From Vermamoeba vermiformis (Eukaryota): a DNA stretch of 64,000 bases. Below are positions 802 through 41,671 of the stretch, one piece after another (the first letter of the stretch is position 1; every line of letters begins with the position of its first letter). Both the position numbers and the translations under genes were made by a program. The stretch lies in assembly GCA_045837725.1 (NCBI GenBank), contig JBEWZL010000227.1, positions 62,001 to 126,000 of the forward strand, written 5' to 3'. Under the pieces are notes generated by a model. That model did not search any database. It was not told the origin of the DNA and saw nothing but the letters and a program-made list of their open reading frames with translations.

Positions 802-1149
802 CCTAACACCCGCGTACCTTCGAAGCTAAGCTTGTATTAATAATAAAGTATTTAATAAACATGTTCTAATCGCTGCAAGCTGTTGCACACGACAGAAAGT
901 TATGAAAAAGAAGTAATTCGAGACACTTTTTCCGTAGCCCCTGGTCCAAAAAAACAAGCAGCTCAACTTCAGAGTTTAATTGGCCAATCGAATCGTATTA
1001 TTTAAGTCGGTTCCTATAATTATCACCGCAGTTGCGTTTTTTCTTGGCCTGACTTTCAAATAAAAGCAAGCAACGTCAGCGTTAAGGCACAACACGCTAA
1101 AAAAAAAATCTGACGCCTTATTAGTATACACTAGCACTATTGAACAATT

Positions 1150-3283
1150 ATGGATGACAACAGCAATTGGAACGACGGTGGGGAGGAAGTGAATTTCCGT
1201 AAGTCCACATCCCAAATTTCAATAGTCCCAATTTATTACTCATGATAGTAATTATTTAGTATAATAATATTTATAATAAAATTTACGAAGGTGTTAATAA
1301 TTTAAACGGTTTTTAATAAAGATAACTATTTTCTAAATTATTTTTATCCTTCGCTTCTAACGATTAACTACTAGAGAGACTTCCTCAAGATGAGCCTAAA
1401 GATGAGGTTCTAGTGTCAGATCAAATAACATTGGATCTGGCTAAATTGTATCATTCACAAAAATGGACCGACGTAACCTTAGCCGTAAGAGATAGACGAT
1501 TTAAAGCTCATCGCTTGGTACTATCTTCAAGAAGCACATATTTTAACAACCTGTTTGAATCGGAGCCAGACAAAGTGCTCTTCGATTTGGATTCAGCATT
1601 CAATCCAGATGCGTTCGAAATTGTCTTGGAATACATTTATAGCGCTAACATTGTTGTTAATCGAAAGTTAGCGGATGATATTGCAGATATTGCGGTGAAA
1701 TTGGACCTCAAACAGGTAAGATCCTTTCTATCTGAAACGCATCCGGAAATTTAAATCAATTTCTGATTCTAACTAAATTGATTTTGATATGTAATGGTAT
1801 AACTAGTTACTAATGACTCTTATTTTAGCTTTCAATTTCGTTGGCAGGCTTTTCGGGAACGAAATTGAGCAAAGAGAACGTGCTGCAAGAAATTCAGCGC
1901 TATTATGGCAAAAACAAAGCGGCGCTCGAGCACTGCTTAAGATTTTTAGACCATAATATCAAGACAATAGGCGTCGATAATCCTCAATTATTGACGATGC
2001 CTTTCGAGATCATGAACGAGATCGTCAAAAGACAAACCTTAGGCATTGAAGAGGTGGATCTGCTGCAAATTTTGATCAATTGGAGACGCGAGCAGGAGTT
2101 AAATAATGATACCGATACGGTCAAGCGACAAGCTACTCAATTAGCCCAACATTTGAAACTACATCTGCTACATCCAGAAGCGTTCTTTCATACCCTCAAA
2201 CCGACTGGCTGGTTCGCTACGGAAGTATTATGGGACACATTGAACGAAATGATCAACTCCAACAGAGGCTACCCAATCAGAGATAGGCAGGACGGTGATC
2301 CAAGATACACACCTCGCAAACCCGGCCCAAAAATACTTAAAAAACGAAAAAATGCAGCTGGACCAACACCAGCGGACGTTCCTATTGCCATATTAGGAAT
2401 GGAGGCCAGCGGAAAAACTGTTATGTTGTACAAGCTTAAGCTGGGCGAAGTCGTTACTTCTATTCCGAGTAAGTCCCGTTGAATTTTGATGTTATGATCA
2501 AATTTACCGATCATTTTATATTAACAATATCGTATTATTGTTATATTAATCAAATTCGAAATTGAAAGACAAATTTAGATCCGGATTCGTTTTTTTTAAA
2601 CAAATTCAAAATGTTTCTTTGGCGCTTAAATAATTAATTTATTATTTTTCAGCAATTGGATTCAACATTGAAGAAGTTACATACAAGGGTACTAATTACA
2701 AACTCATCGATTGCGGTTACAAAGTTAAGAACAACTGGATGGATCTAGTTTCACCGAGAACAGAGGCGTTAATATGGGTCATAGACTCGAATAATAGAGA
2801 CGTCGATTTGCTAGTCGAGGGCGTTGAGTTGAAGGAAACTTTTGACAAATTTAACAAGCCTTCCATGCCTGTATTAGTCATTGCGAACAAGCAGGATATG
2901 CCTAACGCTAGATCTGTTAACGAGATCTGTGAGCTGATGGGGTACGTAGTGTTTACTTATATTAGTATAATACGATGATATTATTGGATGTCTAGTCAAT
3001 CCAGACGAAAACTATTTTTTTTCTGGATTCGCATCCAATACGTTCGCTCCAGATCTTGCTTTATTTTTCAGACTGCTTAAAGCCATATAATAATGGGTAC
3101 ATTTAGATTGAGAGATTTGGGCTTGAAGTTTTGGTTCATTCAAGCAGCGTGTGCTACAAGCGGCGACGGATTATACGAAGGTACGACTACGCTCAAATTC
3201 ATTAATTTTTCGATTTATACTGACTTATTTAATAATTAGGACTTGATTGGATTCATAACCAGTTAGGAAGAGATGACGAGTAA
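1150..3283 (+). CDS. BTB-BACK-like domain fused to a C-terminal Arf-family G-domain (copy 1)
   Basis: Exons 1150-1198, 1375-1715, 1829-2468, 2653-2941, 3107-3180, 3240-3283 join in frame through GT-AG introns. BTB motif [26 protein letters not shown]; Arf motifs [36 protein letters not shown]. Confidence 0.85.
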
Positions 3284-3366
3284 TTTCAGATCCGCGTTTG
3301 TACCGGTACAAACAGTAGCGATAAATATGTGGCCTTTTAAATTGATAATAAATAATTTACTATGAA

Positions 3367-5972
3367 TTAAATATGCGTTTTCAAGACGAAAGGAATGTAT
3401 ATCACTCCAATGAAGGTGAGCAAGAAATTGAATCCGATCGAGTTGGCGTTCGCGTTGGATGAGGCCTTAGAAGGAGTCGATTGAGAGCTGGGCGACTGAT
3501 CTGCGATGGGAGATGCCGAGCCAGAGGGAGGCACGTCAATAGGACACTCTGACAAGCCAATTGAAAAGAGCGGTGCTGAAATGTTGAGGGAGTTGTACAC
3601 TGTTGGAAGTGAATACGCACCCCACGCGTAGCGAATTTGAACAGCTGATTGGCTGCGTAAGATAAAATTCAGTCAATAGTGAATAAGAGAGTGTCAAAAG
3701 CCTCAAATATGAGCTCGAATATCTGAAGTGACATCCAGATTTAAAATGCGTCAAAGTGTCAAAGTGTCATTTGAAGAAAGTAGAGTGTTTGAGACGTCTC
3801 TTTAGCAATGTGAAAGATATTACGTGTCAAAGTGTCAAAAGTGTCAGCACAAACGTACTTTGAAATGGAGTAATCACCGCTCAGGATCACTTGAGTTTTG
3901 TCTTGACTGAGTGCGTACGAAGCAGTGTACCACGCACTGCCGTTGTAGACTCGCCAGGGCCAGCCGCAGTTTGTTTCGTTGAGTCCGACAGGACATGCGA
4001 TCGCTTCTGAAAGCATGAGTCCCTAATGAATGATCGATCTTTAATTACGCCGTTCATGAACGCTAATAATCAACACTTACATCGCCAATCGTATCTTTCA
4101 CGAATGAGATTGCAATGTCGCTTGATCCGTCATTTGCAGAGGCACACTAGAAAATGTCAGCGAGTCAATTAGCGAGATATTGTACAATTCGTACCGATGG
4201 AATAGGTCCGTTCCAAGTACCACTCAGGCCATACACAAGTCGTCTTGTGCACAAATAAGCACGATAGCCCACTGGCTCTTTGTAACGCGGGTGCTGAAAG
4301 ATGATTAGAATGTGACTATAAAGCGTATTTATAACTTACAATAGAGCCAAAGGGCGAAGTAACGTCACCGAGTTCAGTGGTGCTAACGAGGCAAGAGTTT
4401 TCAATCGAGTCTCTGAACAGATCGAATTGCACCGCTCGGAATCTTGGCCAGTTATCGCCGTTCTCATTTAGCGGTGCCAATTGGACAAAAATAAACGGGA
4501 AATCTGGCGTCACGAGCAGTAATTAATTAGAAATTTCACGAAAATGACGCATGTCAATTTTTTCAAGCCAGAACTTACTTGATTGGAAACGAGTGCGATA
4601 GTCTTCAACAAATTTGGGTAAAGTGCATGCGTAAAAAGTATCAAAACCGACATTAGCTTCACCTTGGTACCAGATCATGGATCTGATCGCCATAGGCAAG
4701 AACGGATAGACCATTGCGTTCCATATTGCTGATTGGCCAGATACAAATTTGCCACAGCCAGACGAATTGGCGACTTGAGGACTGACCCAACTTTCAATAC
4801 TCGTTCCAGGCCAGTGATTCGCGACCAATCCAATCGGCACTCTGTTGTTCAGTTCGTTGGACATGTGCATGGCATTCCACCAACACACAGCGCTCACTCC
4901 GACAGTGGAACTAACTCCGGCTCGAACCCAACTGATGCTGCCGTTGATGACTGGATTAGGCGTCCAAGGGTCCTATTGAAAATTCGGTCATTTAACTAAG
5001 TCTTAGTGACGTACAAAAATATCGCCTGTCGTGGGATGAAAAAATGAAAATTCATTAAATAATAATTATAATTCATTAATTCGAGGGGTAGTGAGTATTC
5101 GTAATGAAATTTCAACTGGCATAGAATATTTTGATACGTATTCATTATCAATACTTCTGGGACTTCTTATTTCATTTATAGAAATAACATAGTGCCCGAC
5201 GATCAACGGAGTTAACAATTATAGAGGGGGGACTTACATAAGGAGAAGCACTGCTAACTTTAGGCACTTGAGCGATTCTAATGTGCGAGTAGTTAACTGC
5301 AGCTCTAATTGCATCGCCACCGCCAAATGCGCTGTACAGAATGAACTGTTTATAAAAAAGTGACACGTGTCATTATCAAAGTGTCAAACATTGAATCGTA
5401 TAAATCGAATGACGTACTTCCATATTTGACTGTCCCGAGCAGTAATACACGTCACCGAACATGACGTCTGTCAAATTGGCGAAATTTCCGTTGGCTCCTT
5501 GAACCAGAATGGTGTAGGGACCTCCAACAGGCTTTGGAGGTAAAGTAATGAGCCATCTAATTGAAGTACATGTTTTGTTAATATTAATAGACTCTATTAT
5601 GGTTTATCCTGAAAAAAGTCGTACTTTCCATCCGAATCTGCTGTCGCTTCGTAAGTTTCGCTTTGTTGGTTAGCGTCAATGAGATTCAGTTGCACTTTAT
5701 CAGACGCAATAGACCATCCCCATATTTTAGCACTAATATACAATTTAATACACGATTAAAAAAAATTATCGTTAGCGGATGTGCCCTTACTTCTGCGGTT
5801 CTCGCTGTAACACCATGCTAGAGCTGAATACATTTGATACTAAAGGCAGAGGAGCACCTATTTATTCAATTAGGACTGTTACAGTTAGAATTTTTTACGT
5901 ACTCCACGCTGCGGATTGAGCCAAAGCACCGCTTACGGCAAGCAATAAACACAAAGCTAGTGAACACTTCAT
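3367..5972 (-). CDS. SIAE: Secreted sialate O-acetylesterase (SASA/SGNH family) with Ser/Pro-rich linker and hydrophobic C-terminus
   Basis: Signal peptide MKCSLALCLLLAVSGALA; motifs SMVLQREP, FGDVYYCSGQSNME, GTSIESW, IWYQGEAN, FIFVQLAP, SIHPRYK; multi-exon. Confidence 0.88.
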
Positions 5973-6695
5973 TGATGCAAATTCAATTGGAAAATAATTC
6001 AATTTATGATTGATTGATTTTGTCGGCCGTATTGCGAGTTTGGGCGAGTCCCATGTGTGACACCAAAATGACATTTTTGACGTCATTGCGACATCATTGC
6101 AACAACAATGAGTATTTTTAGCCTTGGATGTACGTAGATATTTTTGCTTTTATAAGGCATTGTAATTCGTAAGGCCAGAGACTGCTGAAGGCTAGCTCGG
6201 TGAGCACAATAATAATGACTACCTTAAAAACTCAAAACTTCATTACCAGTTTGTTGCAGTACGTAGAAGGCTATCGAAATATCAATGCACGAGCTTTTGA
6301 ATTTTCTGTGCATTTAAATAGGAGATTGGATCATAAACGCTATTTTCGCCAGGTATTTTCTGCGACCTTCGGGCATAATTTTTGTTTATAGTTATCGTGT
6401 ATTAATTGTAGATAAGTGCAATTAATTATCTAATTATTATAATTTTGTAAAGATAATTGAGTAATTAATGAAAATATCTGAATTAATTATCTACCGCGAT
6501 TGTAGCCGTCTTATTCTAATAATGTTTGCTAGAATAGTGAAACTATTTTTATGTCAAGTAATTTTGCTTACGTGCGCTTCTTGTTTGCGTGCTTCGGACG
6601 GTCCACCGAAAAGATCTCGACGTCAGCAGAATTCTGGTCCTCTGTCTACAGACGATTTTTTCAATAATTTGCTATGTAGCATTTTATACACCAAC

Positions 6696-7750
6696 ATGGA
6701 CGACGACTTCACTCGCGAAGAGATAGCAAAAAGTAAGGCTTCCGTAATTTAAAGACTCGATCGAAAAAAAAAGCGAAATTTTGCCTCCTTTTTCTTTCTT
6801 TTTCTGATATTCTTTATAGGGAAGCATGTCATTATCTCAAGCAAAGGATTAGGCCCAGATTTTGTAGTTCTGTACCGATCTCAAATCAAAACGGATGTGA
6901 CCTTGGTTGTGCAGTCGAAAGAGTTCAAAGTTCACCGCTTAATACTATCCACACGATCAAAATATTTCTACGAATTATTTAACACATTTCCATCTCGGTC
7001 TAGAATCGAGCTAAATGAAGCTTTTGATCTGGAAACGTTCGATCGAATTTTGGAGTTTATTTACGGCGGAAAAATTCATATTGATGGATCAACTGATATT
7101 AAGGAATTAGTAAAATTAGAACGCCTGGCCAAAAGATTGGATCTGAATTTAGGAAAGGTAAAGATTAGAATTAAAAGTTTTTTTTAACTAGGGCAGATCC
7201 GACGCCAAGTGGAGCGAGGATATAATAATATAGTATACTATTACATTATAATCGTTATTCAATATTTGTTTAGGTGTTTGAAACGAAGAAAAAATGGCTG
7301 GAAGAAATAGATCAATTCGTGCATCGCAATATCGTGGTCAGCCAGCTTAAAAGAAGCTTTGCATTAAACAAGAAGCCTCAAATAGATCGGTGTATGCAAG
7401 TCATAGAGGACTATCTGCCTGATCTGTACGGACATCCGGAGATGCTGCAACTTCCGTTCAAAATTTTGCTCGCGTTTGTTTCTAAAGGAAATAGAAAATT
7501 CACAGTGGAAGACCCCCTTGTATTATATTTATTTTGTTGGTATTCTGCTCAAAAAGAAGAAGGCGTCGAAGAATTCGTTTTAAAGAAGCAGATGCGGCAG
7601 CTTTTTAAGCACATTAACCTAGAGCACGTTGAATTTAAGAAAAAATTGGATGTATTGCGACCAATGGATTGGGTCTCTGCTGAAGAACTGTGGAATAGTC
7701 ACTTAAAGCAAATTGAATTTTGCTCTCAATGGAGGGCAAATCAAAACTAG
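6696..7750 (+). CDS. BTB-BACK-like protein without GTPase domain (paralog of the BTB-Arf genes)
   Basis: Exons 6696-6732, 6820-7157, 7274-7750 in frame; TDVTLVVQSKEFKVHRLILSTRSKYF; same first two intron positions as the BTB-Arf genes; stop codon before any P-loop. Confidence 0.8.
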
Positions 7751-8003
7751 CGGCATAAAGCGAATAAAAAAATCAATTAAGTGCATCACTTAAGAAAATG
7801 CAGCGTATTCCATTTAAATTAATTTTCTAAAAAGCGACGCGTCATTTTTTGTTCGTTTCTGTTACGGATCTGAAAACTTGACTAGGAATAATAATGTGCC
7901 TTAATCATACAATATATTGTATACTTCATTGGTAAAGTGTATTATTTATAATACGTATAACAAGTACATACGAGCAAAACTCAGTTTATTAAATAAGTTA
8001 CTA

Positions 8004-11000
8004 TTACACATGCTGGAACACAGTTTCGTTGCCAAAACTAATTGCCTTTTGCAGCGCGTCACGTGATATCATGCCAGCAAGTTTACCATTTTTGGTAACA
8101 AACGCATTCTGCAACCGCAAAGTGATGAAAAACAAGTGGACTTGACTGAGCGGCGTATCAGGTTGGAATTGAATAGGCGCGCCTTGAATAATTTGCTTCA
8201 ATTTGTGTCTAATATCGAATTTTTTCTTGCGCTGTTTCTCTAAAAATTCAGCCGTTGATTTGCCTTGTGCAATTAACTCGTCTATCTTGGCCTGTCTCTT
8301 TTCTTTTTCTTTGTTAATCTCGTACTGCAGGGACGTTACAAAGCCTAATAACGCTTCGTAGTTTGTCGTGCCAACCAGCGTCTTATTTTCTATAATGAAA
8401 AAAATTGTTAGCCGAGTTGCTGGGGGCTACTAATTCGTCAAAAATTTTCAATAAAATGTTAAAAAAACATTGAAATTAAAGCAAAGTTTCCTTAATAAAA
8501 GATTGACTATTATAATGTGGAGTACTCCACATAAAATTTTTGTGAGTGGATATGGCCGAGTTGTGATAGGTAAAAAAACATGACAGATCCGTCGTCATTA
8601 AAATTTTGACAGGTGTCATAATCACTAACGTACCAGGACTATCAACAATAGGAATGCTATGCGTTCTAAAGTTCTCAGTCGTAGCCCAACGTTGCAAGAA
8701 CTGTTTCATGTCTCGCAGCGAGGTCTTCATCGTCAAGAAATTGTCAACGCGTGGCTCCATGATGTCACGTGCTGTCTTTGATACCGTTCTAAATTTGGCA
8801 TTCGTTAGAATATTCGCAATGATAGGCAGGAAAGTTTTAAAGTCGTTAAAAGCGAATAAGAAAAAATGATTGATTTCCAAATATGGTAATGGTTTTGATA
8901 AGTATCGCGTACCCTAAGCCCAAATCAGGCAAGAAAGGCAAGCCTCTGATCAACGAAATGCTGTCGAAGATTGACACGGACAACTTTTGCGAGACACCTT
9001 GGGCAATTACGACGACCAACTACAGCGAATGAGTATTGACTTTTTCATTACCATATATGGTAATATGGTACTTACGATGACAGGCAATGCAAAGTTGAGT
9101 TGACCAGTGATCTCGAACATGATGACACTCATGCTCAATGTGTGCGTGATACCCGCACCTATCGCTGCTGTCCCGACAATTGCATAAATTCCCGGACTCA
9201 GGGAATTTCCGCCCGACCCGAAGTTGACAGCTTCACCGACCATGCGACCAAATGACGCGCCTATCACGAGCACTGGAATGACGACTCCGAGAGGTAAAGG
9301 CATCGACAAGGCGAGAATGAGCAGTAACATCTATTAAATATGTATTAGTATCGCATGATACACTTGTTAAAACAGATTTCAATGAATTCTTCGTAAAGTG
9401 TCAAAGTGTCAAAAATGTCATTTTTAAGGGTCAACTTCAAGTGACACGTAAAGAGTTTGTAATATCAATAGTGAAGTAGTATTTGGGGTGTATGTTAAAC
9501 TACGTACTCTTATGAACATGAACATAATGAGCGAGAAATAGACGCTAATGTCACTCCAGTCCGTGTTCAATTTGCCCGGGGGATACGGCACCAGTGGACT
9601 GCCTTGGTACAAATCTTTCAACGCTGCAAAACTGCCCAACTATAATAACAGTTAAAGTTAATCATTATATTTGCATATATATGTTAATGATTTTAACGCA
9701 CGCCAATAGGATCGTCGATGGCACCAGGGAATGTTATCAGAGCTGTAACAATGCCTGCAACAAACGTGTACGGATACGGGCTGTATTAATAACGTTAATA
9801 AAGGTGGTTATTGTTATATATATATTATTAAGACCTTACTTTAATAGCGGGTATTGAGTCGCATAAGCTCTTCTGAACTTGATCCACTTGGAGTTAACGA
9901 AGATGAAACAAGCCGATAAAGCTCCACCAGCAACACCTATTCGAGCATTAATGGTTAATATGAGTATAGTATAGTCTAATGTTCAAACGTACCCATGGCA
10001 ATGAACACAAGAAATTCCCAAAAATTCGCTTTTGCAATCACGTCGTCATAATCAGTTGGCAAATAGGCACGTAACAACGCTGGAAAAAAAACGATTAAAA
10101 TGAATATTATAAATACGATAAGCATAGATAAAGCTAAATTTGGCTCTTACGATATCCAGCGATTTGATTGGTCAAAATTTTGAACAATGTGCCACCAGTA
10201 GTTGCAGCGACGAAAGCAAACCAATAATTACGCAACGGATAATACGTCGATGTTACTTCAATACTGAACAGCACGCCTACCAATGCTACGTTAATATTTC
10301 CTTATTTGGTAACAATGGAGTGAAAGGCCGTACCTCCAATAGGACTGCCAAAGTTGGATGCGACACCACAAGCTGCAGCTGCTGCGTACATTTGTTGTTT
10401 TAACGATGGATTCTATTTGTATAATATGTAAGTATATGTAACATTGGGTATTTTATATTAATAATGCTCGAATGTAGTTTGGAAATGAAATTTAGATCGA
10501 GATCCGAATCCGGATCTTCTCGTAATTAAATTTGCACAAATATAATTATGACTTACTTTTTTAATCTTTCTGAAGAATTTCAATTTGGACAGCTGATTGG
10601 CAATAATACTCGAGGTGTGCACAAAAGGACCTTCTTTGCCGACAAACAGACCGCAGCCGATTGCCGTTGACAGACCGAGAATTTTGCTGAGCAGTGTTTT
10701 GAGCGACAAATACTGGCCTAGTGTCACGCCTGACAGCACGCACTTCATCTCGGGAATACCCGAACCTAAAAACAAAATCGTTAGCTCACTCAACGAAACT
10801 ATCATTTGCATAATTATTCAGGATAATATATTATAATGATAGTGTTAACTACGAGGTTATTTGATTGCTGTAGATCCGGTCAAAACTTATCGGATCTAAA
10901 AGTCTCGTTGGATTGCGTTGACTTGCTTAAAAATAATTTTGGCAAAGTGCCAGTATTTGGTTTAATAATATTATAGTGATATATTACTATGATAAAGCTA

Positions 11001-13082
11001 ATGAAGTAATATTAAAGTGCGTGACTTACCTGCAGCATTTGCACTAATAACTTGTGTGAAGAAGAGAGATAGACCCAAAAATGTTAACATGTGTGAGACC
11101 CAAATAAAGTATCGCAAGTAGAAGTCTCCTGTGAGTGTCAAGAGGAACGAGCGTACTATAAATAGAAAGAGCGATGAGTATTACTATAAAAGGAAATTTG
11201 GTCAAAAGTTAGGTACTGACACTCCAAAATGTAAGAAATAAAAGTATCCATAGCCACTCCGACTAGCGCAGCAATGACTCCCAAAATAACCAAAAATACG
11301 ATTGAAATATTGGCCTCGCTAAGAAGATTCAAAAATCGCGAGAAAACGTAACGGATCTTCCTTCGTGGCGTATCTGGTGGATAAACTATTGTTCTTCGCT
11401 TGCTCGCCTAAAGACAAATTTATTAGTATACTATTATGATACTAGTTATAGGATACATACCTTTCGCTTCTTACGCTTCAACTCTTTCGCGATCTCAGCC
11501 GCTTGACTTTGTAGCGTGGATTTGAAGTGGCCAAAAATTGTTTGTTCGTAGCCATAATCTCCCTTTTCTGGCGGCTCTATACATATTCGTTAATATACTT
11601 ATCACAGATATCAATCAAGACGACAAAGAGTCTCAAAATTGTTGCAGTTCCGATTCGGATCGAAATATTAAAAACTGTAATTCTCGATAAATACGTACGA
11701 TTAGGATCCATGCCCTCGGGTGGCTGAATATCACTACCACTATCGCTCAAGTTCAACAGATTGCGTTGATTATCTTGACTGTCCTGATTCTCGTCAGCGT
11801 ATTGTCCGTGATGGTTTTCCTCCAACATTTTGCTGTCCAATCGAGGTACCGTACCAAATCTGCGCAAGTCAAATTCAGCGCGACTGTCCATTGTTTGCAG
11901 GTAGTCTATACAGAAGATGAAACGGTCAGTACAAATAGAACTATTTGTGGATCTATTTAACGCCCTTTCATTATCCGTGGTGTATTGGGTACATAAATTA
12001 ATATCAATAAAATATAGGATTATTATGATTTTTAAAAAGCAATTGTAAGCCATTATATAAACGGATGTGACTCGATTCTTAAAGAGGCAAAATTAAGCAC
12101 TTACCGCTGCTATTATTAGACCTCGGAGAGTCAGATGAGACTTGATCGTCCATATCTTCAAATATACGAGGTGGTTCGGGCTTTTCAGGTCGTTTTGGCT
12201 GATCGCTTGGTGGCGCGAACAACGAAGACGGACCATTACCAAATATAGAAGCCAGGGATGATGGCATGTCAGATGGGGGTTGCATACGATTAATAAGGCT
12301 ATTGTTGCTCGGCAATTGTTGGTCTTCATATTCGTCTCCTTCGCTGATCGCTTCGTCTAAACCAGATTCGAGCCCAGATTCACCTGTGAATAATAAAATT
12401 TAGCTTGTGTAACTAATTTCAAAATAATACAACGATAAATAAGCGATTATTTAGCGATAAATAAGTGCGGCATATCAGTTTGTTCGGGATCGGAACTGGA
12501 TCAAATTACTGTTGCATTATTTTGTACTGTAAATAATAGAATAATGTTTCAATATAAATATTATAACTACAAAATTTATATTAATCTATTCCTAAGGATT
12601 GTTATTAAAAAACCCTTCGATCGGATTTCATTTTTTCGGTTTTAAAATATTTAAGCGAATTCATCGCTATGAAAAGTCGGGCACATTAAATATACGATAT
12701 ATTTGCATATTGTACTGCAAAATAATTTGAGCTGAGTTTAAACGCTGAAAATACAATATTTTTACGAAATACCGCGCGAATACTTTCATAACGAAAATAT
12801 TTAAACAGCAAGCATAAATGTGATTAATTAATTTAAATATAATCTCGTAAATTTATAATATTGATATCGGACTTTAAGATCCCGTGTATTTAGTATGAGC
12901 TCACCTCCAGAGTCAATTTCAGGGTGATTAGCGCCATTAGAAAATTCATGATTATGAGGCACATAACCGTCAATGGGCTCGTGATCCAATTGCTGGTCTT
13001 GGTGCGTTGGATTCGCATCGTGATCGATGTTCGACTCCTCGTCTGTGTCTTCCAATCTATTCCACGGGTTCTTGTCAGCCAT
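8004..13082 (-). CDS. CLC chloride channel (ClC-1/2-like) with C-terminal CBS domains
   Basis: Motifs [60 protein letters not shown] repeats ([22 protein letters not shown]); long disordered N-terminus; start ATG 13082 inferred. Confidence 0.92.
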
Positions 13083-13371
13083 GGGAATATTAAAATTATC
13101 AAATAAGGAACATTAAATGCACTTGTTGTTTGCTTCGAACGCTATTTCAAAAATAGCCGTTGGACAATACTGAATTCGCTTGGCTCCAACAGTAAGAATT
13201 TATTTGAGGAACCATTAGCACATATCAACTTATATTCACCACTGTTTAAGGTTCCTAGGGCTTTAAGGGCCGCCTTAGTAATTGCCCGGACAAACAAGCA
13301 GTTTTTCAGATCTAACTCCGAAATAGCACAACAATTGGTTGAATTGGTATTTCAATAATTGTAGCCTCAAT

Positions 13372-15812
13372 ATGACGACGGAGTACCCATTGTGCCCTTC
13401 GTTTACTCCAGCACAAGTTAGTACTGGTAAGAGATACTAAAGATCTTCTTTAATTTATTTAACACGAGCAAAATTAGGGTTCGAAGGAATAGAATATTTT
13501 CGTGGTGAAATTCAGCTAGCTGCGACGATAATTATCGTTGGAACCATGATGATTTCACAAATCTGGTTAGGGCTTTTGTTTTTGCCTATCCCACAGCTTC
13601 CACAATTTATGAAAAAATTGGATATTGAGCTTAATTTTGAGGAGATATTGGAGAGGAAAAAATCACAGCTGAGTGAGGAGGATAGTTTATTAGGAGAAGA
13701 AGAAAATGGGAAGATCGAAAAAGAAAATCCGAAACCTCTATTGATTATTTACAAGCGTGGCTGTTGTTTGAAAAACTATCCACGCGTAATAGAATTAGAG
13801 AATTTATCTGGTCGGCACTAAATAATAACCTTAATGTAAATGCAGTAATCTCTCACTTCATTGCAGGAGTCACAAGCAAATGTCCTCTATGCCCGGGCAA
13901 AGAGACTGTTAATCATCGAATTATCACATGCGACTACACAGCAGATATCACACGACAGTTCCGTACATTCTGGCATACATCCACAAACAAAAATTTACCT
14001 GAAGACTTCAACTTAATGAACGCCCACAACATTAAACAACGACAGCAATTGCTCATTAACTTATACAGCATTGTCCTTTATTCAATCTGGATAGTTAGAA
14101 ATAACAAAGTGTTCAACAACAATTTAGTCCCAATATCGCAGATTATAGAAAGAGAACTGAGAAGATTCTACGCCAAGATTTCATTTCGTGCTAAATTAAG
14201 TATCTCACAAACACAAAACACTCAAAAGCTATCAATCATCGATAACACTAGAAGGAAATGGTCAAATACAATGTTCGACTTTGATCAAGACGCAAATGTA
14301 ATTGTACAATATAGCTTCAACTGGCAGTAAAGTGGACAAATTCAAAGATTGCTCTCTCTGGTGCTTGGCAACCCCAGGGCTGGAGATCAATATAAGCAAT
14401 TCAGTCGGGCATTCGGCGACCCCAGATGCTTGACTGTTGCTTGGATTTGTTTCGCTTGATTGATCTACTGTAATCAAACGACGCTTTATGCCAACGTTTT
14501 TACAATAGTGATATCAACAGTTGTTGGTCTAATAAATGGAGATTTAAACAAAAAAAATAAAAAAATAAAATAAAAAAAAAAAAAAAATCCGAAACGACCA
14601 AGAAGAGCATCTGGAGGCGTGGCAACGGTAATAATAGTGGTTATATTGATTATAGTGAGCACTACATCGTTTGTTGTGACGAACGAATCAACAGGATCCA
14701 TTAGTTTCCAAACTAACCAATTATCGACGACCAATTTGTTATCAGATCAACGAATGCAAGCAGGCCTCTTATTCAATTTTGGAGAATACAGTTCTTCTGG
14801 CGATGCATATATTATGTTCAAAGATCCTCGAGACAGCAATCCTAAGCGGCAATTCGGCTGTAAATTACAAGTGGCGTACCAAGAGCGGCCTTATCTAACT
14901 CCGTTACCAATTTTTCCGTTAGATTTGGCTTCTTTACGACCTATCAAGGCATTTAATGGTGTTCAGCTTTATGCGACGGTTTGCAGAGCAAATTCAAGCC
15001 GATCTGTTTTGGTGGATGTGAGTACTCCCGTAATACCCGCTTTGGAACACTATCCTCCTCCTGGAATATTCACGGATAAACCTCTTAAATTGCAAATGTA
15101 CAGGGACTCAGTTAAGGAGGTCAGTGTTATCAATCTGACTTGGACTTGGGTGGAAATGGTTTCGACATCCGTGCTGGATTTGCTAAGTCCGTTGGTAAAT
15201 TCGAGGAAATTGCAGGCAAAAATTGGATATCATCTTGATACGAGATCAATAGCAGATAATTTTACGTATACTTCTCCCGCCGGCTGGACGGTCAGCACAT
15301 CTTGGCCGAACTGCACAGAACTTCCTAATTCAGCCTATGAGCCAATATTATCGTTTATAGTGTCAAATGTGGAGCAGGATCCAAACAACCAATCATACAT
15401 TGTGTCGGAAAAATCTTTGTTGTCGTGGGCCTTTGCAACACTGGTAACACTTGGTAGCGTTATTGCGCTAAAGCCAACTATTACAAAATACTTAGAAAAG
15501 TTGTCGAATTATTGGACGATGAAGGCGTGGGCGAGATGGGTGTTATTTGCGATTTATACGGTAATTATGCCGTTGCCACTAACCGTAGTGTTGCTTAAGT
15601 TGGCGAAGTTCCAAGAAGAAAGGGTTAAAATTCGCGGGGCTACGTACGATTATTACGCTTATATGGGATTATGGCTCATAATGCTTTGCATTCTCGAGAT
15701 CATAATGTGGCTCGCAGTTCTCCTCCGTCAAATCCACAAAGTTGTGACTGACTGCCGAAAACGCCGTCAAGAACAACTAGAGATAATTTATATGGGGACC
15801 GAAGATATATAA
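13372..15812 (+). pseudogene. Multi-pass membrane protein gene (509 aa when reconstructed) interrupted by a retrotransposon insertion
   Basis: Exon 13372-13426, intron, then exon 13478-13735 joins in frame to 14596-15812 once the insertion and one TSD copy are removed (…KENPK|RPRRASGGVATVII…); 1530 nt open frame; about 5 hydrophobic segments. Confidence 0.8.
13736..14583 (+). mobile_element. 5'-truncated non-LTR retrotransposon (L1/Tx1-like): ORF2 C-terminus, 3'UTR and poly(A)
   Basis: Frame open 13737-14330 with zf-RVT-like CPLCPGKETVNHRIITC and SIWIVRNNKVFN; AATAAA at 14531; A-rich tail about 14546-14587; flanking direct repeat AAAATCCGAAAC at 13724-13735 and 14584-14595. Confidence 0.9.
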
Positions 15813-15986
15813 TAAATATCGGAATGTTAATCACGGGTTTCCACGTAAGCAACTTTTTCAAATAAAAAACGACGTTGCAGTTCAAAAACAGACGTGCACC
15901 AGATACAATGATATTATTTAATTTCCGAAGATAGTACGGAAGCAACCGCTTGGTAATCTCATCATTACCTTTACAACAATCAATCT

Positions 15987-17955
15987 ATGGATTCTTTCGA
16001 AGATCTTGATCCTTTCAGTAAGTTTGAATCTATCGTAATTAAAGGCAATTTTTTTTAATATTACCAAATAATAATTGATACTCCTCGTTAGGGGATTTCT
16101 TTAGTTGTCGAGTTATTTTACAATTTTTTCAAAATAATTTTTATTATTACTGACGATCATTGATCTTACCAGAAAATTCATCATCGAACCCAGCATACGA
16201 CATGTTGTCGCAAGGAGATCAATTAGTGCACGACCTTTTATCCCTGTATCGATCTCAAATCAAAACGGATGTGACGCTGGTTGTCCAATCAAAAGAATAC
16301 AAAGTTCACCGCTTAATACTATCCACACGATCAAAATATTTTAGCAAATTATTCGAAGAGCATCCAGATCAACATAGAATCGAGTTGGACGAACCATTCA
16401 ATTTAGTTGCGTTCGAACACATACTAGAATATATTTACGGAGGCCAAATCATGGTTAATACAAGTAATATCGATACATTAGCAGCAATCGCAGAGAAATT
16501 TCGCTTAAAAAAGGTAAAGTCGTTGTAAGATCTGATCTTTGGTGCGGAAATTTTATTAATATTTTATCTCTAATTATTTGATTAACGATTTATGAATAAT
16601 ATTAAATTTTAGCTTATTTAATTGTTATTATTATAGTTATGCAGACTTTTGGGAAGTTTCTACGGCACAGAATTGACCGGTGACAACGTCGTTAAAAAAT
16701 TAGTCCACTATCATAAGACAGAGAACAAACGAGCAGTCCAACAATGCTTATTATACATCGATCATATATTTACTACGAATTACAGATTAGAAAAGGAACT
16801 TTTAGAGTTGCCTTTCGAAATTTTGATCCAGATCGTGCAACGCAAGACGCTGGATTCGACCGAATCGAGGATCTTAAAGCTGTTAGTTGAATGGCATAGC
16901 CGTCGTGTAGACGATTTGGTTGATTCGGATATATTGCAGAAACAAATGCAGCAGCTGTCAGCACATCTCAATCTATTTTTATTGTGCTTAGAGGATCCGA
17001 TGCCTTTGTTCAACGTTCTTCGGCCTAATGGCTGGGTCACCGATGTAGAATTATTATGGAATGCTCTTACAACTAGGGTCTCTGCGGGAGATATTGGAAT
17101 CGGAAGAGCAGAGACAAATCCGATGTTCATGAAGCGCAAACCTGCACCAAAAATTTCTAAAAAGAAAAAAGAAGCGTTCAAAGTGGCTATTTTGGGCTTA
17201 CCACGTGCTGGCAAGACTTCGGTCATGAAGTACTTCTTGCGTAAAACACATCCTGATCTTCAAAGTAAGTTCGTTTGGCAAATCCAGTTCCAGTTAGGGC
17301 TCTTCACGAAAAACGATCGTATTAATAGTATTATTATTTATAGCAACGACAATTATGGTGGAGGAATTTGAATTTGAAGGCAACACCGTTCAATTACGCG
17401 ACTTCAATGCCGAAGATGCTCAAAAACTATGGTATTCAGAGGTCAATAAGGGCATTGATGGACTAATATGGGTGATTGATGCGACAAATCTATTAGAAGA
17501 GAATATCGACGCCATTAACAACATCATGGACTTCGTTGGCCAGAAAGATCTTCCAGTCCTGATCTTAGCGCACAAGAGTGACATCAATACTGCCCGAACG
17601 GACGACGTAATTAGCTTCTTAAGGTACTTTAATATTTTTGATAGAGCTGTTCATAACTTTCAATCCGTTACGTTTTTCCTAATTTGGAAATTCTAACACT
17701 TCTATATAGAATTACAAGGAGCGTGTATTTTAGTCTCGCTAAACGTACTATACTGGACACATGGCATATAGTTTCAAGTAACATGAACACCCCAGGATCG
17801 TTAGATGACGGTAAGCTCGACAGATCCGTACAAACGTCGCCACATAGGCAAATTAATTAACGAATTAATTGCTAGGCATGAAATGGTTATTAGAGAAGAT
17901 GATAGAGAACACTCTAAAGAGGAAAAAGCACGGTGTAATTAGTCGAGCTAAATAA
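15987..17955 (+). CDS. BTB-BACK-like domain fused to a degenerate C-terminal Arf-like G-domain (copy 2)
   Basis: Exons 15987-16017, 16173-16513, 16637-17264, 17344-17623, 17710-17810, 17876-17955 in frame; BTB motif; P-loop GLPRAGKT, GLIWVIDA, LILAHKSD, SLDDGMKWL. Confidence 0.82.
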
Positions 17956-18064
17956 ATCTTCCGCCTTGGATCTGCCCTAAGACAGCTTTTCAATCAAAAA
18001 TGAGGTCCTTATTATAGTATTATATTATTATACTGCTATGAGTCTTTGTTATGCTATTTGCCGT

Positions 18065-18958
18065 TTATTCTCGCACAACGGTTATAGTGCACGGACATTC
18101 TTTGACGGCATGTTCAACAATGGCTGACGAATGTTTAGCTAGGGTACCTTTAGGACTATAATACCATAATATATTATTATTAGTACAATAATTGATATTC
18201 GAATGCTATTTCGGTCAGATCTGACACAATGAAAGTACGTACATAAATCCTGTGTTTCCTAACACAACCTCTGCTCGTTCTCTTGTAGCTACTTTGCATA
18301 TTTCTTCGGCAATATGTAGAGGACCGCTCCATGATCTATATAAAAGAGTGTTATTCGATGGCTTAATCAAGCTGGATGCGATCCGATCTCGAGATTCGAC
18401 TTGCTAGTAATTTTAAGTAGAAAAAAGCATGTGATGCAAATTATTATGATTATATGCGATAGTTAATTATTTAGCTACGTACTCTACGCCGACGACTTGG
18501 CCCGTGCAATTTCGTCCAAGTTCTTTGCACTTGTTCAAATAGCTCGATAATATTTCGCGGCCCTTCTCTGTGCTCTTTTTGTTCTCTTTCATAATTTCTT
18601 CGTTTGCGGAGGTAAAAAGTGATTTAGCTTTGTGTTCTACGAGCGTAAGAAGTATGATCTGGTCTTCTGGCCGACTATTTCGAATAGCATAAGCAAAAGG
18701 CTGATAAAAATATGCTATTAATTTCGGCGTAAATATTAGTCGTAATTTTCGAGCACGAGTAATCAATAATAAATAACAAATAAAATAATAATTAATTTCA
18801 AATTGGTAGAGGGCTTCTTTTTGCGTAATTTTGCCACTTGATATTTTAGTACACTAGCGTTGCGCATTTTTAAAAATTACGAGTTGATTTACCTTCAGAC
18901 TGAATGGATTTGCATCTAGCGCAACCAAAAAGTTCCTTTTCTCCGGTTGAAATGACAT
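18065..18958 (-). CDS. Universal stress protein (UspA-like)
   Basis: NFLVALDANPFS…FAYA…IILLTLVE N-terminus; IAEEICKVA…VVLGNTG; C-terminal VEHAVKECPCTITVVR; 4 exons. Confidence 0.8.
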
Positions 18959-30005: not shown

Positions 30006-32068
30006 ATGAAAGTCTTGATTGTCTTTGCGGCCTTGTTGGCTGTGGCTTTTGCCGGAATTACTTTCCCCAACATCACTCAAAACTACGGTTACATCAACGC
30101 CAACAGGTAATCAGTCGCGAGATCCATCGATCTACCAACTAGATTTTGTTCTTGGCTTATTATCTTTATTAATCCTTCTAATATTATAGCCAATATGGTG
30201 TCAACTTGTTCTACTGGGAGTTCGACTCTTTGGACAAGCCCGCAACTGATCCTCTCGTTGTTTGGTTGACTGGTGGACCCGGCTGCTCTTCTGAAGTTGC
30301 TATGTTCTTCGAGAACGGCCCTTATACTGTCAACGACGACTTGACTCTTACTTTCAATCCTTATACGTAAGTGCGGAGAATGCGGATTTGGATCAAAAAA
30401 ATATTAAACGGTTTCAATGAGGCTTAATTTTAGGAAAAATTAGTGCTATATGAAAATAGCACTAAAATATCATTTTTAAGTATTTTAATCGATAAAATTC
30501 TAATACGTTTGTATTCCATCCTCGATCTGCTACCGTACAGCAAAGAGAACCATGCTTTCTCTGCTTATATCTATACCATTATATGAATCTAATAATTGAT
30601 CGCACGACTACGATGAATCTAACGATTGATTACACAGTTGGAACTCTCACGCCAATTTGCTCTACGTCGATCAACCGGGAGGGTAATGTTTCGCTGCGAC
30701 TGATCGTTCTAATAAATAGTATACTAATATTCGCCAATGTAGCACTGGCTTCTCTTACGTCAACAACCCTTCTGGTTATGTCCATAGCGAAGATCAAGTT
30801 GCCGATGACTTCTACACTTTCCTCGTTGGTTTCTTCAAGAAGTACCCCAAATTCGTTGGTCGTGACTTCTATATCACTGGTGAATCTTATGCTGGAGTAA
30901 GTGTTTGAACCTTCACCACTTGTTGAATTATCCGTTACAAATCCGCGAGTTTGAACTTGTTGTTTTACTGCTGAGACTGACTCGCTTTGTTTAGCACTAC
31001 ATTCCTGCCATCGCCGCTAAAATCGTTGATATGAACAAGAAGAGCAGCTTCAAGATCAACTTGAAGGGTAAGTAACACCAAATCCGCGACCGGATTCACA
31101 TCTGAACTCGAAGCTAATCCTTATTTTATCGCACAGCCGTTGCTATTGGTAACGGTTTGGTTGATCATCTCATCCAAGACAAGTCCTATGCTCCTTACTT
31201 GTACGCCCACGGTTTGATCGGCCAAGACGTCGTTCAACAAATGAACCAAGCCTACGCTCAATGCCAACAAGATATTGAAGCTGGTGAATATACGAACGCC
31301 TTCAGCGACTGCAGCTTGGTTATCCAGATTGGTCGTCAAGCCGCTGGCAACATCAACGTTTACGACATCCGCAAGCAATGCGACGGCAATTTGTGCTACG
31401 ATCTTAGCAACATCGAAAACTACTTTGCTCAATCCTCCGTCATTAACCAGCTCGGCGTTGGTAACGCTCAATGGACTCCTTGCAATGAATACGTTTACCA
31501 ATACTTGGTTAATGACTTTGAGGCCTCGTACAGATTCGATCTCGTCAAGTTGTTGGCAAACCAAGTCCGCGTTCTCATCTACAACGGTAAGTATTAATAT
31601 TTGGAGAATTTATCCATATTTTTGGAATTACTTGGCGGGTTTTTTGGACCATTTTCGGATCGAGGTGGATCGCATACTTTGAACAACTTTCTGACATTTG
31701 TTAATTCAAGGTGAATACGACTTCATCTGCAACTTCTACGGCTCTGCTGAGATGGTTAACACTATGCAATGGTCTGGTCAACAAGCTTTCCTCCAAGCCC
31801 AAAACACCACTTGGAACTACAACGGCCAAGCTGTTGGTAACTCTCGTACTGCCAACGGTTTGACTTTCGTCGTCGTTTACAATGCTGGTCACTTGGTTCC
31901 TCACGATCAAGTAAGTACTGATAAGCCTATCATATCATTTTGAAAAGTTAAAGCTTTTTGGTGTCTGGATGTGGCTCCACGTACTGACCTTTTTTTTTTT
32001 CTTTCTTTCAGCCCGCCGCTGCTCTTGACTTGTTGACTCGCTTCATCAAGAACAAGCCTTTCAACTAA
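30006..32068 (+). CDS. Serine carboxypeptidase, peptidase family S10 (copy A)
   Basis: Signal peptide; [52 protein letters not shown]. Confidence 0.95.
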
Positions 32069-38850: not shown

Positions 38851-39719
<869 letters not shown>

Positions 39720-40011: not shown

Positions 40012-41671
40012 ATGGCGCTCTCGATAATCCAAGGCCTCGTGGACAACGGCGCTTCGTGAGTACAATAATTTTATAATTCAGAAATTCCAAATTTATTTGT
40101 CTTCAAGTAAAACTCTTTAAACTAACGGTGGATGTAGGTCACTTCGAAGCTTGCATAACCGCTTCAATAAGTTCACTGACGAGCTGGACGAAAAGTTGCC
40201 TACTCTATTCCACAACTTGGTTCAACCCTCGCGTCGCAATAATAACGGAGATCAAATAGAGAATCAATTTCACGAGCTAATTTGGGATCTACCGCAAAAA
40301 CAAAAGTCGATCCTGATTACAGAGGACAGTTTGCCCGAAGAAATTTTGATATTGATATTCAAGTACTTGGGTCCTAGTCCTAAAGAACTCTTAACTACAG
40401 CAGTTGTATCAAAGTAAGTGTTAGAATTCTGCACGAGAAAACGTTTAAAAAGAACTAAAATTTGAATTATTTTTCAGGCAATGGTACAGATTATCTTTCG
40501 ATCAAGAAGTATGGGAGACCTTATTCTACAGACAAGAGTCGCATTGGGACAGCTTAGTCTCGATTCACGACGAAAAGCAAGATCTCGGCAAGAAACTTTT
40601 GGACACGGGATCTAAGATCCTGCAATCAATTTTCAAGACCTCAGACACTCCTACTGAAGAAGACGAGGCCCTTCAAGTATATGACTGGCGCAAATCATAT
40701 ATCAAGCAGTACATCCACAACACCATTGTCGCCAAACGCATCCACTCGCACATCCAGTCAATCCGCAAGAACGTCGTCGATAATGAAAATTACGCATTTG
40801 TTCAGCCGTTAATGAATCCGTGGGAAATGAAATCACCCTTCGCTGAATCAGTGCGAAATCCGTTCACGAAGAAAGTCTTTCGAGTTCCAATGTTCGGCGA
40901 GGTAAGTTCATGATTGAAACTTGACACGTGTCATTCACAAGACCCTAACGATACTTAACTTTTAAGGGTCTCGAGACTAGTGCTAAAAAGCTAGTGTACA
41001 ATATGATGTGGGGTGATAAGTCACTGTTCAAGATCAGCAATTTGTACCCTGGTGTCGAAGGCATCGGATCCGGCGTAGGCTTTGAACTGATCAACGGCGC
41101 AGAGATTAACCTTGCAGTGATGCATCGTTATGAAGACAGAAAAGTGTTTGAATCCGTCAGACCCAAATGGCGCAAATTTTTCAAGAATTCTGAAGGCTTC
41201 ATTTTCGTCATGAGCCACGAAGTCGATATTGCAAAGACGAAGAAAGAAATGGACAATTTCATTAACGACCAGTGGACACGACCTGATGCACCACTATTGA
41301 TATTATTTGATCCTAATATCACTGGTCCCGTGCCTGACGAAGGTGAAGAGGATCCGATTCTTCAGAATAACAACACCGAGCCTGCCGTTACCGAGAATAG
41401 AGACATGTATAATGATCTATTAGGCGAGCAAGCTGATGCCGACAATGCATCGGAAAACTCCGCGGAAAGTTTGCAATCTTCGACAAGTTCAGCGGATGCA
41501 CCTCCGACCGAAGAAAAGAAAGTGAATTATTTGGCGGGAAAACGACCAATTGATATTGTCAAAGAATTAGGCTTGGAACATATGAAGCGAAAATGGTGCG
41601 TTAGAAGATTTAACGCGAAGAGTTTGGATGGAGTTTATGAAGCGTTATTGTGGCTTACCACCAATAACTAA
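40012..41671 (+). CDS. FBXO4: FBXO4-like F-box protein with C-terminal small-GTPase-like domain
   Basis: F-box SLPEEILILIFKYLGPSPKELLTTAVVSK; VPMFGEGLETS and EGIGSGVGF resemble the FBXO4 MFGPGLE/DGIGSGV motifs; Arf-like GFIFV and DGVYEALLWL. Confidence 0.8.

Follow-up and report, generated by a model that had tools for sequence, protein, structure and literature searches.

The DNA considered here, the window in what follows, is a stretch of 64,000 nucleotides from Vermamoeba vermiformis (contig JBEWZL010000227.1, positions 62,001 to 126,000, forward strand), eukaryotic in character, with a GC content of about 38% and short GT-AG introns. It holds a canonical Arf gene, two paralogous genes that join a BTB-BACK module to an Arf-type G domain (copy 1 and copy 2), a paralog reduced to BTB-BACK and an F-box gene with an Arf-like domain, which together form a comparative series for the study of how pseudoGTPases arise. 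Our main subject is copy 1, an expressed gene under purifying selection whose product has an Arf fold, and in which switch II has been rebuilt.

The copy 1 gene and its switch II

Copy 1 (1150-3283, + strand) codes for a BTB-BACK-Arf fusion of 478 residues in six exons (1150-1198, 1375-1715, 1829-2468, 2653-2941, 3107-3180 and 3240-3283, the stop codon being at 3281-3283), a model which is based on the spliced translation, on the joints seen in RNA contigs and on Pfam. The spliced frame is open over 478 codons and all five introns have GT and AG at their ends. The five introns are all joined in the contigs of run X5, and four of the five in those of run X6; these are contigs of two public runs which we guess to be RNA. 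The contig pieces that cover 2653-2940, including the codons for IDCGYK, do not differ from the window by a single letter. Contigs drop rare variants and 16 further joints are not displayed, so that there is room for a minor isoform of copy 1. Two runs of raw RNA reads, X21 and X22, which have the species label of X5, yielded no read for positions 1000-18200 when about 6% of each was sampled, and are no test; that they are blank over 17 kb well covered by X5 and X6 means either that the label spans different organisms or that the 6% sample missed these genes.

The BTB domain is encoded by exon 2 (1377-1715, +; Pfam PF00651, E 9.6e-21, 74.5 bits) and its sequence matches in the PDB are to the BTB domains of ZBTB17, Kaiso, BCL6, SPOP and KBTBD proteins. 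The BACK domain and a basic linker follow (1829-2379, +; PF07707, E 1e-5, 26 bits for a cut-off of 20.9), and the succession of BTB and BACK/3-box regions is that of the BTB-BACK substrate adaptors of Cul3. The phi-x-E motif, which we take to be the contact with Cul3, is not obvious in LFESEPDK. The Arf-type G domain (2380-3283, +) has introns 3 to 5 inside it; the assignment is supported by Pfam (PF00025, with E-values of 4.7e-14 for exon 4 and 0.00099 for the end of exon 3, where the P-loop lies) and by the fold of the model of the ortholog P0001. The domain matches Arf1 from the PDB with an E-value of 1.5e-10 (HMMER) and is 45% identical to the canonical Arf of the window. It sits at the C-terminal slot, which holds the protein-recognition domain in BTB-BACK adaptors. 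Being internal, behind the linker, it has neither the N-terminal amphipathic helix nor the myristoylated Gly2 of Arf proteins. BTB, BACK and Arf are the only domains that Pfam finds in copy 1; no RING, B-box, coiled coil, F-box or GAP-like (GTPase-activating protein) domain was detected.

The linker between BACK and the G domain, delimited by alignment, has the pattern (P)RKPGPK.LK.[KR][KR] and lies at 2317-2352 in copy 1, at 17133-17171 in copy 2 (both +) and at residues 287-300 of P0001. The residues R-K-P-G-P..L-K are invariant in the five copy-1-type sequences aligned, and a similar motif occurs in copy 2 and in its ortholog P0152. This basic segment is similar to a classical nuclear localisation signal, or else to a polybasic membrane patch.

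All the motifs which the sequence-only reading had quoted for the two copies are present on the + strand, and in copy 1 those of the nucleotide pocket, CAT included, are unaltered and conserved. The G1 motif or P-loop, GMEASGKT, is at 2396-2419. In switch I, PTIG, the Pro codon is at 2464-2466, the Thr codon is split by intron 3 (2468 / 2653-2654) and the codons of Ile and Gly are at 2655-2660. The G4 motif NKQD is at 2886-2897 and the G5 motif CAT at 3150-3158 (all on the + strand). The four family sequences compared below all have GxxxxGKT (in the form G..A.GKT), PT[IV] followed by a further conserved run (14 letters of pattern), an invariant NKQD and CA[TVS], in which C-A is invariant and is followed by T, V, S or T.

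The G3 motif is different: IDCGYK (2706-2723, +) stands in place of WDVGGQ, at the start of a remodelled switch II (2706-2759, +; 18 letters after the bracketed Ile in place of 20). From Asp to Trp there are ten residues in Arf (VGGQDKIRPL) and eight in copy 1 (CGYKVKNN). There is no Gln between the Asp and the Trp of copy 1, and one Gly of two is kept, the second being either replaced by Tyr or deleted. It had been proposed that the Gly of DxxG and the catalytic Gln, equivalent to Q71 of Arf1, were both lost. The absence of Gln and of one of the two Gly holds, whereas the equivalence of Q71 with the Lys of copy 1 depends on where the gap is placed: HMMER (against Arf1 from the PDB) and MAFFT both require a gap of two residues directly after D-C-G(-Y), which aligns the Lys with K73 of Arf. 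Likewise, the canonical DxxGQ of switch II is indeed gone, but "lost" describes only half of the situation, since it has been exchanged for another motif, whose conservation exceeds that of the remainder of the domain.

A splice form that restores DxxGQ would have contradicted this description. None is seen in the RNA contigs, and none could be encoded, since no + strand frame of 1100-3400 contains an alternative exon for DxxGQ; the two D..G matches in this interval are out-of-frame or intronic strings beside stop codons. The sole WD.GG of the 64-kb window is in another gene, the canonical Arf near 39 kb. Regarding the motifs that define the ARF family, copy 1 has G1, the switch-I Thr, G4 and G5, and lacks the DxxGQ of G3. 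At the level of the sequence this is the pattern of a class II pseudoGTPase, in which the pocket motifs are present and the catalytic residue is gone.

Conservation, selection and predicted fold

When exon 3 of copy 1 is used as a query against 5.8 billion proteins (longer class), two relatives are found among 836 candidates, P0001 and P0002, which are 71-72% identical to it; exon 4 alone retrieves only P0001, among 40 candidates. With P0001 as the query there are 12,759 matches at E <= 0.001 among 1.84 billion representatives. Among the best 150 of these, three (P0002, P0005 and P0010) align outside the Arf part, in the BACK and linker region, and 12 others that were inspected consist of Arf domains in tandem or join an Arf to an N-terminus of unrelated sequence. 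A metagenome scan gave 92 pattern matches, one of which was confirmed: L001, on a genomic contig, with introns placed as in the gene of the window. None of the cluster members examined has an NCBI or UniRef accession, their sources being JGI/IMG, Logan or ENA. Copy 1 is best read as a lineage-restricted and functional gene.

The Arf parts of copy 1, P0001, P0002 and L001 are 62-70% identical to one another and 41-48% identical to canonical Arfs. All three relatives carry DCGYKVK..WM..VSPRT. The four sequences have 155 columns in common, 77 of them invariant; the switch-II block accounts for 14 of its 18 columns, against 63 of the 137 elsewhere (Fisher one-sided p = 0.010). Selection was examined on one pair, copy 1 and L001, and is given as counts and as the proportions of nonsynonymous (pN) and synonymous (pS) sites that differ. 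Over 285 codons pS is about 0.75, which is saturated, and pN is 0.22. Over the 18 codons of switch II pN is 0 and pS 0.75, only third codon positions being different. For the per-motif comparison that had been suggested we give pN (0 in switch II, 0.22 overall) beside pS, and not the ratio of nonsynonymous to synonymous substitution rates (dN/dS), because the synonymous sites are saturated.

As far as these alignments go, the new switch II of copy 1 is more constrained than the rest of the protein. With 14 of 18 columns invariant and no amino acid change between copy 1 and L001, it is therefore a replacement and not the product of decay. The combination of a preserved pocket and a constrained new switch II argues for the gain of a new surface rather than for the loss of a function.

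The fold was predicted with AlphaFold2 for the ortholog P0001, from an alignment of 56 rows of which at most six are informative in the BTB region. For most of the Arf domain the predicted local distance difference test score (pLDDT) is 80-95, but it drops to 54 for the block of switch I and to 79 for that of switch II; the linker (residues 284-299) is below 50 and disordered in the model. Strand beta-3 stops at the Asp of the G3 motif, "CG" is the only loop and a helix starts at the Tyr that follows D-C-G. When the model is compared to the PDB with Foldseek, Arf1 and Arf6 rank first. The structural alignment to Arf1-GTP that had been called for supports the assignment: the model is close to the GTP forms of Arf1 and Arf6 (1o3y, 1j2j, 2j5x and 4kax; root-mean-square deviation 1.6-1.8 Å, TMt 0.90-0.92) and farther from the GDP forms (1r8q, 8sdw, 5uf8 and 4y0v; 4.2-4.8 Å, TMt 0.70-0.75). 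This predicted fit agrees with an Arf domain that has no N-terminal helix and whose interswitch would be in the GTP-like register.

Paralogs in the window and the origin of the fusion

Copy 2 (15987-17955, +) is a BTB-BACK-Arf-like paralog of 486 residues, with exons at 15987-16017, 16173-16513, 16637-17264, 17344-17623, 17710-17810 and 17876-17955; the introns 16513/16637 and 17264/17344 are seen in RNA contigs. Pfam detects BTB (2.7e-21), BACK (0.0017; 18.8 bits, under the cut-off of 20.9) and Arf (7e-5), and no F-box. Its G motifs are GLPRAGKT (17195-17218), LRDFNAE (17394-17414), HKSD (17571-17582) and SNM (17777-17785), all on the + strand. P0152 is the ortholog of copy 2, with 50% identity over exon 3, and the two proteins have in common GL..AGKT, RDF, LW[YF]SE, IDGLIWVID and LAHK.D, the CAT position not being conserved. 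The model of P0152 has strands and helices that alternate as in a G domain, with a pLDDT of 60-80.

Copy 2 had been described as a pseudoGTPase scaffold, which is not established: P0152 keeps GLKGAGKT, HKHD and a DxxG motif (DFTG). A purely empty scaffold fits copy 2 poorly, because the Lys-Thr of the P-loop and HKxD are conserved. Nor do the two copies make up a graded series in any sense other than a descriptive ordering. Their Arf parts are only 24% identical, compared to 40% for the N-terminal parts, and each has its own ortholog, so that the split between them is old.

The five introns of copies 1 and 2 are all shared, in position and in phase, and so is the motif [RK][KT]P[GA]PK..K of the linker that joins BACK to the G domain; the two copies therefore go back to a single fusion that predates their split. 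Two of the three introns of the Arf part (IP/T and YE/G) also match, in position and phase, those of the canonical Arf gene at a distance of 36 kb, which points to the capture of an intron-containing Arf gene rather than of a retrocopy. The two genes are probably linked in another species too, since P0154 and P0161 (cluster 1) and P0167-P0170 (cluster 3) have longest contigs of equal sizes (404,327 and 477,798 bases).

The BTB-BACK-only paralog (6696-7750, +; exons 6696-6732, which is inferred, 6820-7157 and 7274-7750, from tblastn and alignment) stops just short of the position of the basic linker; over the part they share, its identity is 40% with copy 2 and 30% with copy 1. RNA contigs over 7272-7781 indicate that it is transcribed, and tblastn finds no Arf-like sequence 3' of it. 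Between this gene and copy 2 is an open reading frame with a match to the zinc-binding domain of reverse transcriptases (zf-RVT, 4.4e-7) at 13686-14327 (+), with loose ends of RNA contigs at 13736 and 13954; it may be the remnant of a retroelement.

The canonical stand-alone Arf (38851-39719, - strand) begins with MGAW and has WDVGGQ, NKQD and CAT; its coding exons are 39719-39578, 39457-39095 and 38891-38854, followed by the stop codon. Head-to-head with it, at about 290 bases from start codon to start codon, is an F-box gene whose C-terminal domain is Arf-like but degenerate (40012-41671, +; last exon 40967-41671; Pfam F-box-like 2.5e-6, Arf 3.8e-7), a gene model predicted from the sequence. 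All its G motifs are degenerate, with GLETSAKK as the P-loop, MHRYED for WDVGGQ, DPNI for NKQD and NAK for CAT, and none of the intron positions common to the other Arf genes is occupied in its Arf-like part. Judged from these motifs, the F-box gene is an internal control for the state of a pocket without constraint. Against the PDB, its G-like part matches Arf with E 1.8e-9 and FBXO4 with E 0.066-0.2. We also considered that it could be the ortholog of FBXO4; this is not established, given the E-values of the FBXO4 matches and the absence of any match for the linker exon. The pair formed by the canonical Arf and the F-box gene is flanked by two serine carboxypeptidase S10 gene fragments in inverted orientation (31118-31940, +, and 44336-45183, -) with near-identical Pfam patterns, which may be an inverted segmental duplication.

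A proposed recognition module in a probable Cul3-type adaptor

We propose that copy 1 is a BTB-BACK adaptor of the Cul3 type, whose Arf domain is nucleotide-bound, does not carry out canonical hydrolysis and uses the Arf face to recognise a partner. We give this interpretation about one chance in two. By its architecture the protein is most likely such an adaptor, or at the least a BTB-mediated oligomer, with an Arf-derived G domain where other adaptors have Kelch or MATH. The domain probably descends from an intron-containing Arf gene, has no myristoylated N-terminal helix and is carried by a disordered basic linker. It keeps every contact with the guanine nucleotide and with Mg (GKT, the Thr of switch I, the Asp of G3, NKQD and CAT), and its rebuilt switch II is a shorter element (17 letters), strongly conserved, without the catalytic Gln or the second Gly. 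The guanine nucleotide would then be bound constitutively, probably in a GTP-like conformation, and both the intrinsic and the ArfGAP-stimulated hydrolysis of the canonical kind would be lost. BTB-BACK would dock to Cul3, and the fixed face formed by switches I and II would be the recognition surface. With its pocket kept and its catalytic loop exchanged, the Arf domain of copy 1 is probably a fixed module for recognition rather than a switch.

Several observations weigh against this proposal. TRIM23 has a Lys at the position of Gln71 of Arf1, according to the supplementary alignment of Vargova et al. 2021 (PMC8358228), and yet it hydrolyses GTP, its K458I variant being called GTPase-dead in the part of PMC12075517 that was consulted. 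The loss of Gln is therefore no proof, by itself, of the loss of hydrolysis. It is not specific to fusions with ligase components either, because divergent stand-alone Arf paralogs of Naegleria also lack Gln in the supplement of PMC8358228. The Tyr beside the site of the gamma-phosphate could disfavour GTP, and leave the domain GDP-bound or empty. As regards the Cul3-adaptor part, the BTB region of the P0001 model is mostly below a pLDDT of 50. Last, the GTP-like shape of the model may come from the AlphaFold training set and from the absence of the N-terminal helix.

The first of these points leads to the strongest alternative, namely that copy 1 is a working GTPase switch like TRIM23/ARD1, with a non-canonical catalysis by the Lys of switch II or by another residue, perhaps helped in cis by BTB-BACK or the linker. 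We see it as a possible explanation, though a clearly less probable one than a fixed module. The supplementary alignment of PMC8358228 gives WDVGGK for TRIM23, whose GTPase is active (PMC12075517, in the part consulted), the contacts with the nucleotide and Mg are all conserved in the copy 1 family, and a strong conservation of switch II is also what one expects of a catalytic element. However, TRIM23 keeps DxxG in the form DVGG, whereas in the copy 1 family the second Gly is gone and the loop is two residues shorter; the Lys is aligned by HMMER and MAFFT with K73 and not with Q71; and the protein has no GAP-like domain by Pfam.

We consider it unlikely that the Arf domain is a nucleotide-free scaffold (a class I pseudoGTPase, like RhoBTB1/2 or FBXO4), in which G1, G4 and G5 would be kept for folding only. 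In canonical GTPases the Gly of DxxG contacts the gamma-phosphate, and in copy 1 there is a bulky Tyr where this Gly should be. In the consulted part of PMC12722892, the best-known GTPase-BTB fusions, RHOBTB1/2, are listed as class I pseudoGTPases, with neither binding nor hydrolysis of nucleotide, and ARL14 and ARL15, which are members of the ARF family, were purified nucleotide-free. Against an empty pocket, GKT, the Thr of switch I, the Asp of G3, NKQD and CA are identical in the four family sequences, despite saturated synonymous sites and although half of the columns are variable, while the same motifs have all decayed in the F-box Arf-like paralog of the window. A scaffold with a G fold evidently needs no G motif, since the F-box gene has lost them all. 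As for the gene being misannotated or in decay (a wrong exon or a pseudogene, in which case a normal DxxGQ isoform would exist), we found nothing in favour of this; it is very improbable and we reject it, considering the open frame over six exons, the matching spliced transcripts, a pN far below pS, the same switch-II motif in three other sequences and the lack of any frame of the locus that encodes DxxGQ.

The architecture of copy 1 is not new, because BTB-Arf fusions were published by Vargova et al. 2021 (PMC8358228). According to that paper, some lineage-specific ARF proteins have BTB or F-box domains, which the authors read as recurrent recruitment into ubiquitin circuits. The table lists NgrArf1j, k and l of Naegleria gruberi (with BTB) and McaArf1f of Malawimonas californiana (Rab-BTB-BACK-Arf); in the supplement the three Naegleria proteins have DFGGL, DVGGA and DIGGN, and an F-box ARF of the Physarum type, PpoArlX5, is without DxxGQ. 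In the main text, the terms glutamine, catalytic and switch II do not occur. Like copy 1, these Naegleria and Malawimonas fusions have BTB (and BACK) N-terminal to an Arf1-like G domain and, in the supplement, the three from Naegleria have no catalytic Gln. Unlike copy 1, those from Naegleria keep DxxG and have long N-terminal regions, with 617-665 residues by the run lengths of the supplement. Compared to the fusions as presented there, only the copy 1 family has the DCGYK switch II and the RKPGPK linker. Among the 150 best matches to P0001, no Naegleria fusion aligns outside the Arf part, and for this reason we do not claim a common origin. No publication on a BTB-BACK-Arf family was found under the names of the fusion or under the DCGYK motif; the family and its conserved switch II are undescribed, whereas the class to which it belongs (Arf domains fused to ligase adaptors, pseudoGTPases) is known.

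The sequence-only reading had drawn a parallel with FBXO4, which is a weaker analogue of copy 1 than RhoBTB, TRIM23 or the published BTB-Arf fusions, and is better suited to the F-box gene at 40012-41671. FBXO4 works with an F-box, in a Skp1-cullin-F-box (SCF) ligase, and not with BTB; its G domain, we assume, does not bind nucleotide, whereas copy 1 keeps all its pocket motifs. The likeness to our reading of copy 1 is that of a cullin-RING adaptor whose substrate-binding domain has a G fold (PMC7086354, in the part consulted).

The closest functional analogue of copy 1 is RhoBTB, by convergence and not by membership, as far as an analogy of this kind can be taken. RhoBTB1/2/3 also have an atypical small-GTPase domain fused to BTB, and are Cul3 adaptors. 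Clusters of RhoBTB are the nearest neighbours of the copy 1 family in the feature space of a language model, with scores of 0.86-0.88, which we use as a lead only. The differences are that RhoBTB has a Rho-type G domain at the N-terminus and two BTB domains, while copy 1 has one BTB and BACK and then an Arf-type domain at the C-terminus, and that RhoBTB1/2 are reported not to bind nucleotide (PMC12722892, in the part consulted), whereas the pocket motifs of copy 1 are conserved. TRIM23/ARD1, on the basis of the excerpts consulted, resembles copy 1 in that an E3-ligase module carries, at its C-terminal end, an Arf domain lacking a free and myristoylated N-terminus, and in that a residue other than Gln (Lys) is at the position of Q71; it differs by its RING module (RING-B-box-coiled-coil), its DVGG, its switch II of normal length and its measured GTPase activity. 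The class II pseudoGTPases Rnd1-3 and RhoH resemble copy 1 in that, according to the section of PMC12722892 consulted, the binding motifs are kept and the catalytic residues replaced. They are, unlike copy 1, single-domain and lipid-anchored proteins of the Rho family, and the class of copy 1 is assigned from its sequence.

Small GTPases fused to ubiquitin-ligase adaptors, such as RhoBTB and TRIM23, are poorly understood. The copy 1 family is a natural case in which the pocket is preserved and the catalytic, conformational element has been exchanged under strong constraint. If the Arf domain is locked in the GTP form, it would be the counterpart, in the Arf family, of Rnd and RhoH, inside an adaptor of the cullin-3 RING ligase (CRL3), and a tool to find what a module of this kind recognises. 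A bolder and more doubtful version is that an Arf domain that mimics the GTP form might be a bait, which would bring proteins that bind Arf-GTP, of the host or of microbes, to Cul3 for ubiquitination.

In a broader reading, Arf domains captured by ligase adaptors (BTB-BACK, F-box, TRIM) would have been turned recurrently from switches into fixed recognition modules, and the window would show several stages of this process; we offer this tentatively and regard it as doubtful. The catalytic Gln is absent from all eight ligase-fused Arf domains with a readable switch II, which are TRIM23, NgrArf1j, k and l and PpoArlX5 (from the parts of the sources consulted), the copy-1 type, the copy-2 type and the F-box gene. 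The stages would be, with no greater assurance, the canonical Arf, an intact pocket with a rebuilt switch II, a BTB-BACK-Arf with eroded G3 and G5, and the F-box Arf-like gene without G motifs. If the broader reading were true, the G-like substrate domains of the FBXO4 type would be plausible descendants of Arf, considering the F-box Arf-like gene.

A long open reading frame at 49633-50826 matches clusters of the LRR/RNI-like kind, arthropod in most cases, which is a weak lead that we leave unused. The remaining neighbours are on the - strand: a gene that resembles sialate O-acetylesterase (SASA 4.5e-8) at 4526-4972, a multi-exon CLC chloride channel gene at 8000-12900, with support from spliced RNA, and tRNA-His(GTG) and tRNA-Ser(GCT) at 56638-57099, which are the only two Rfam matches in the window.

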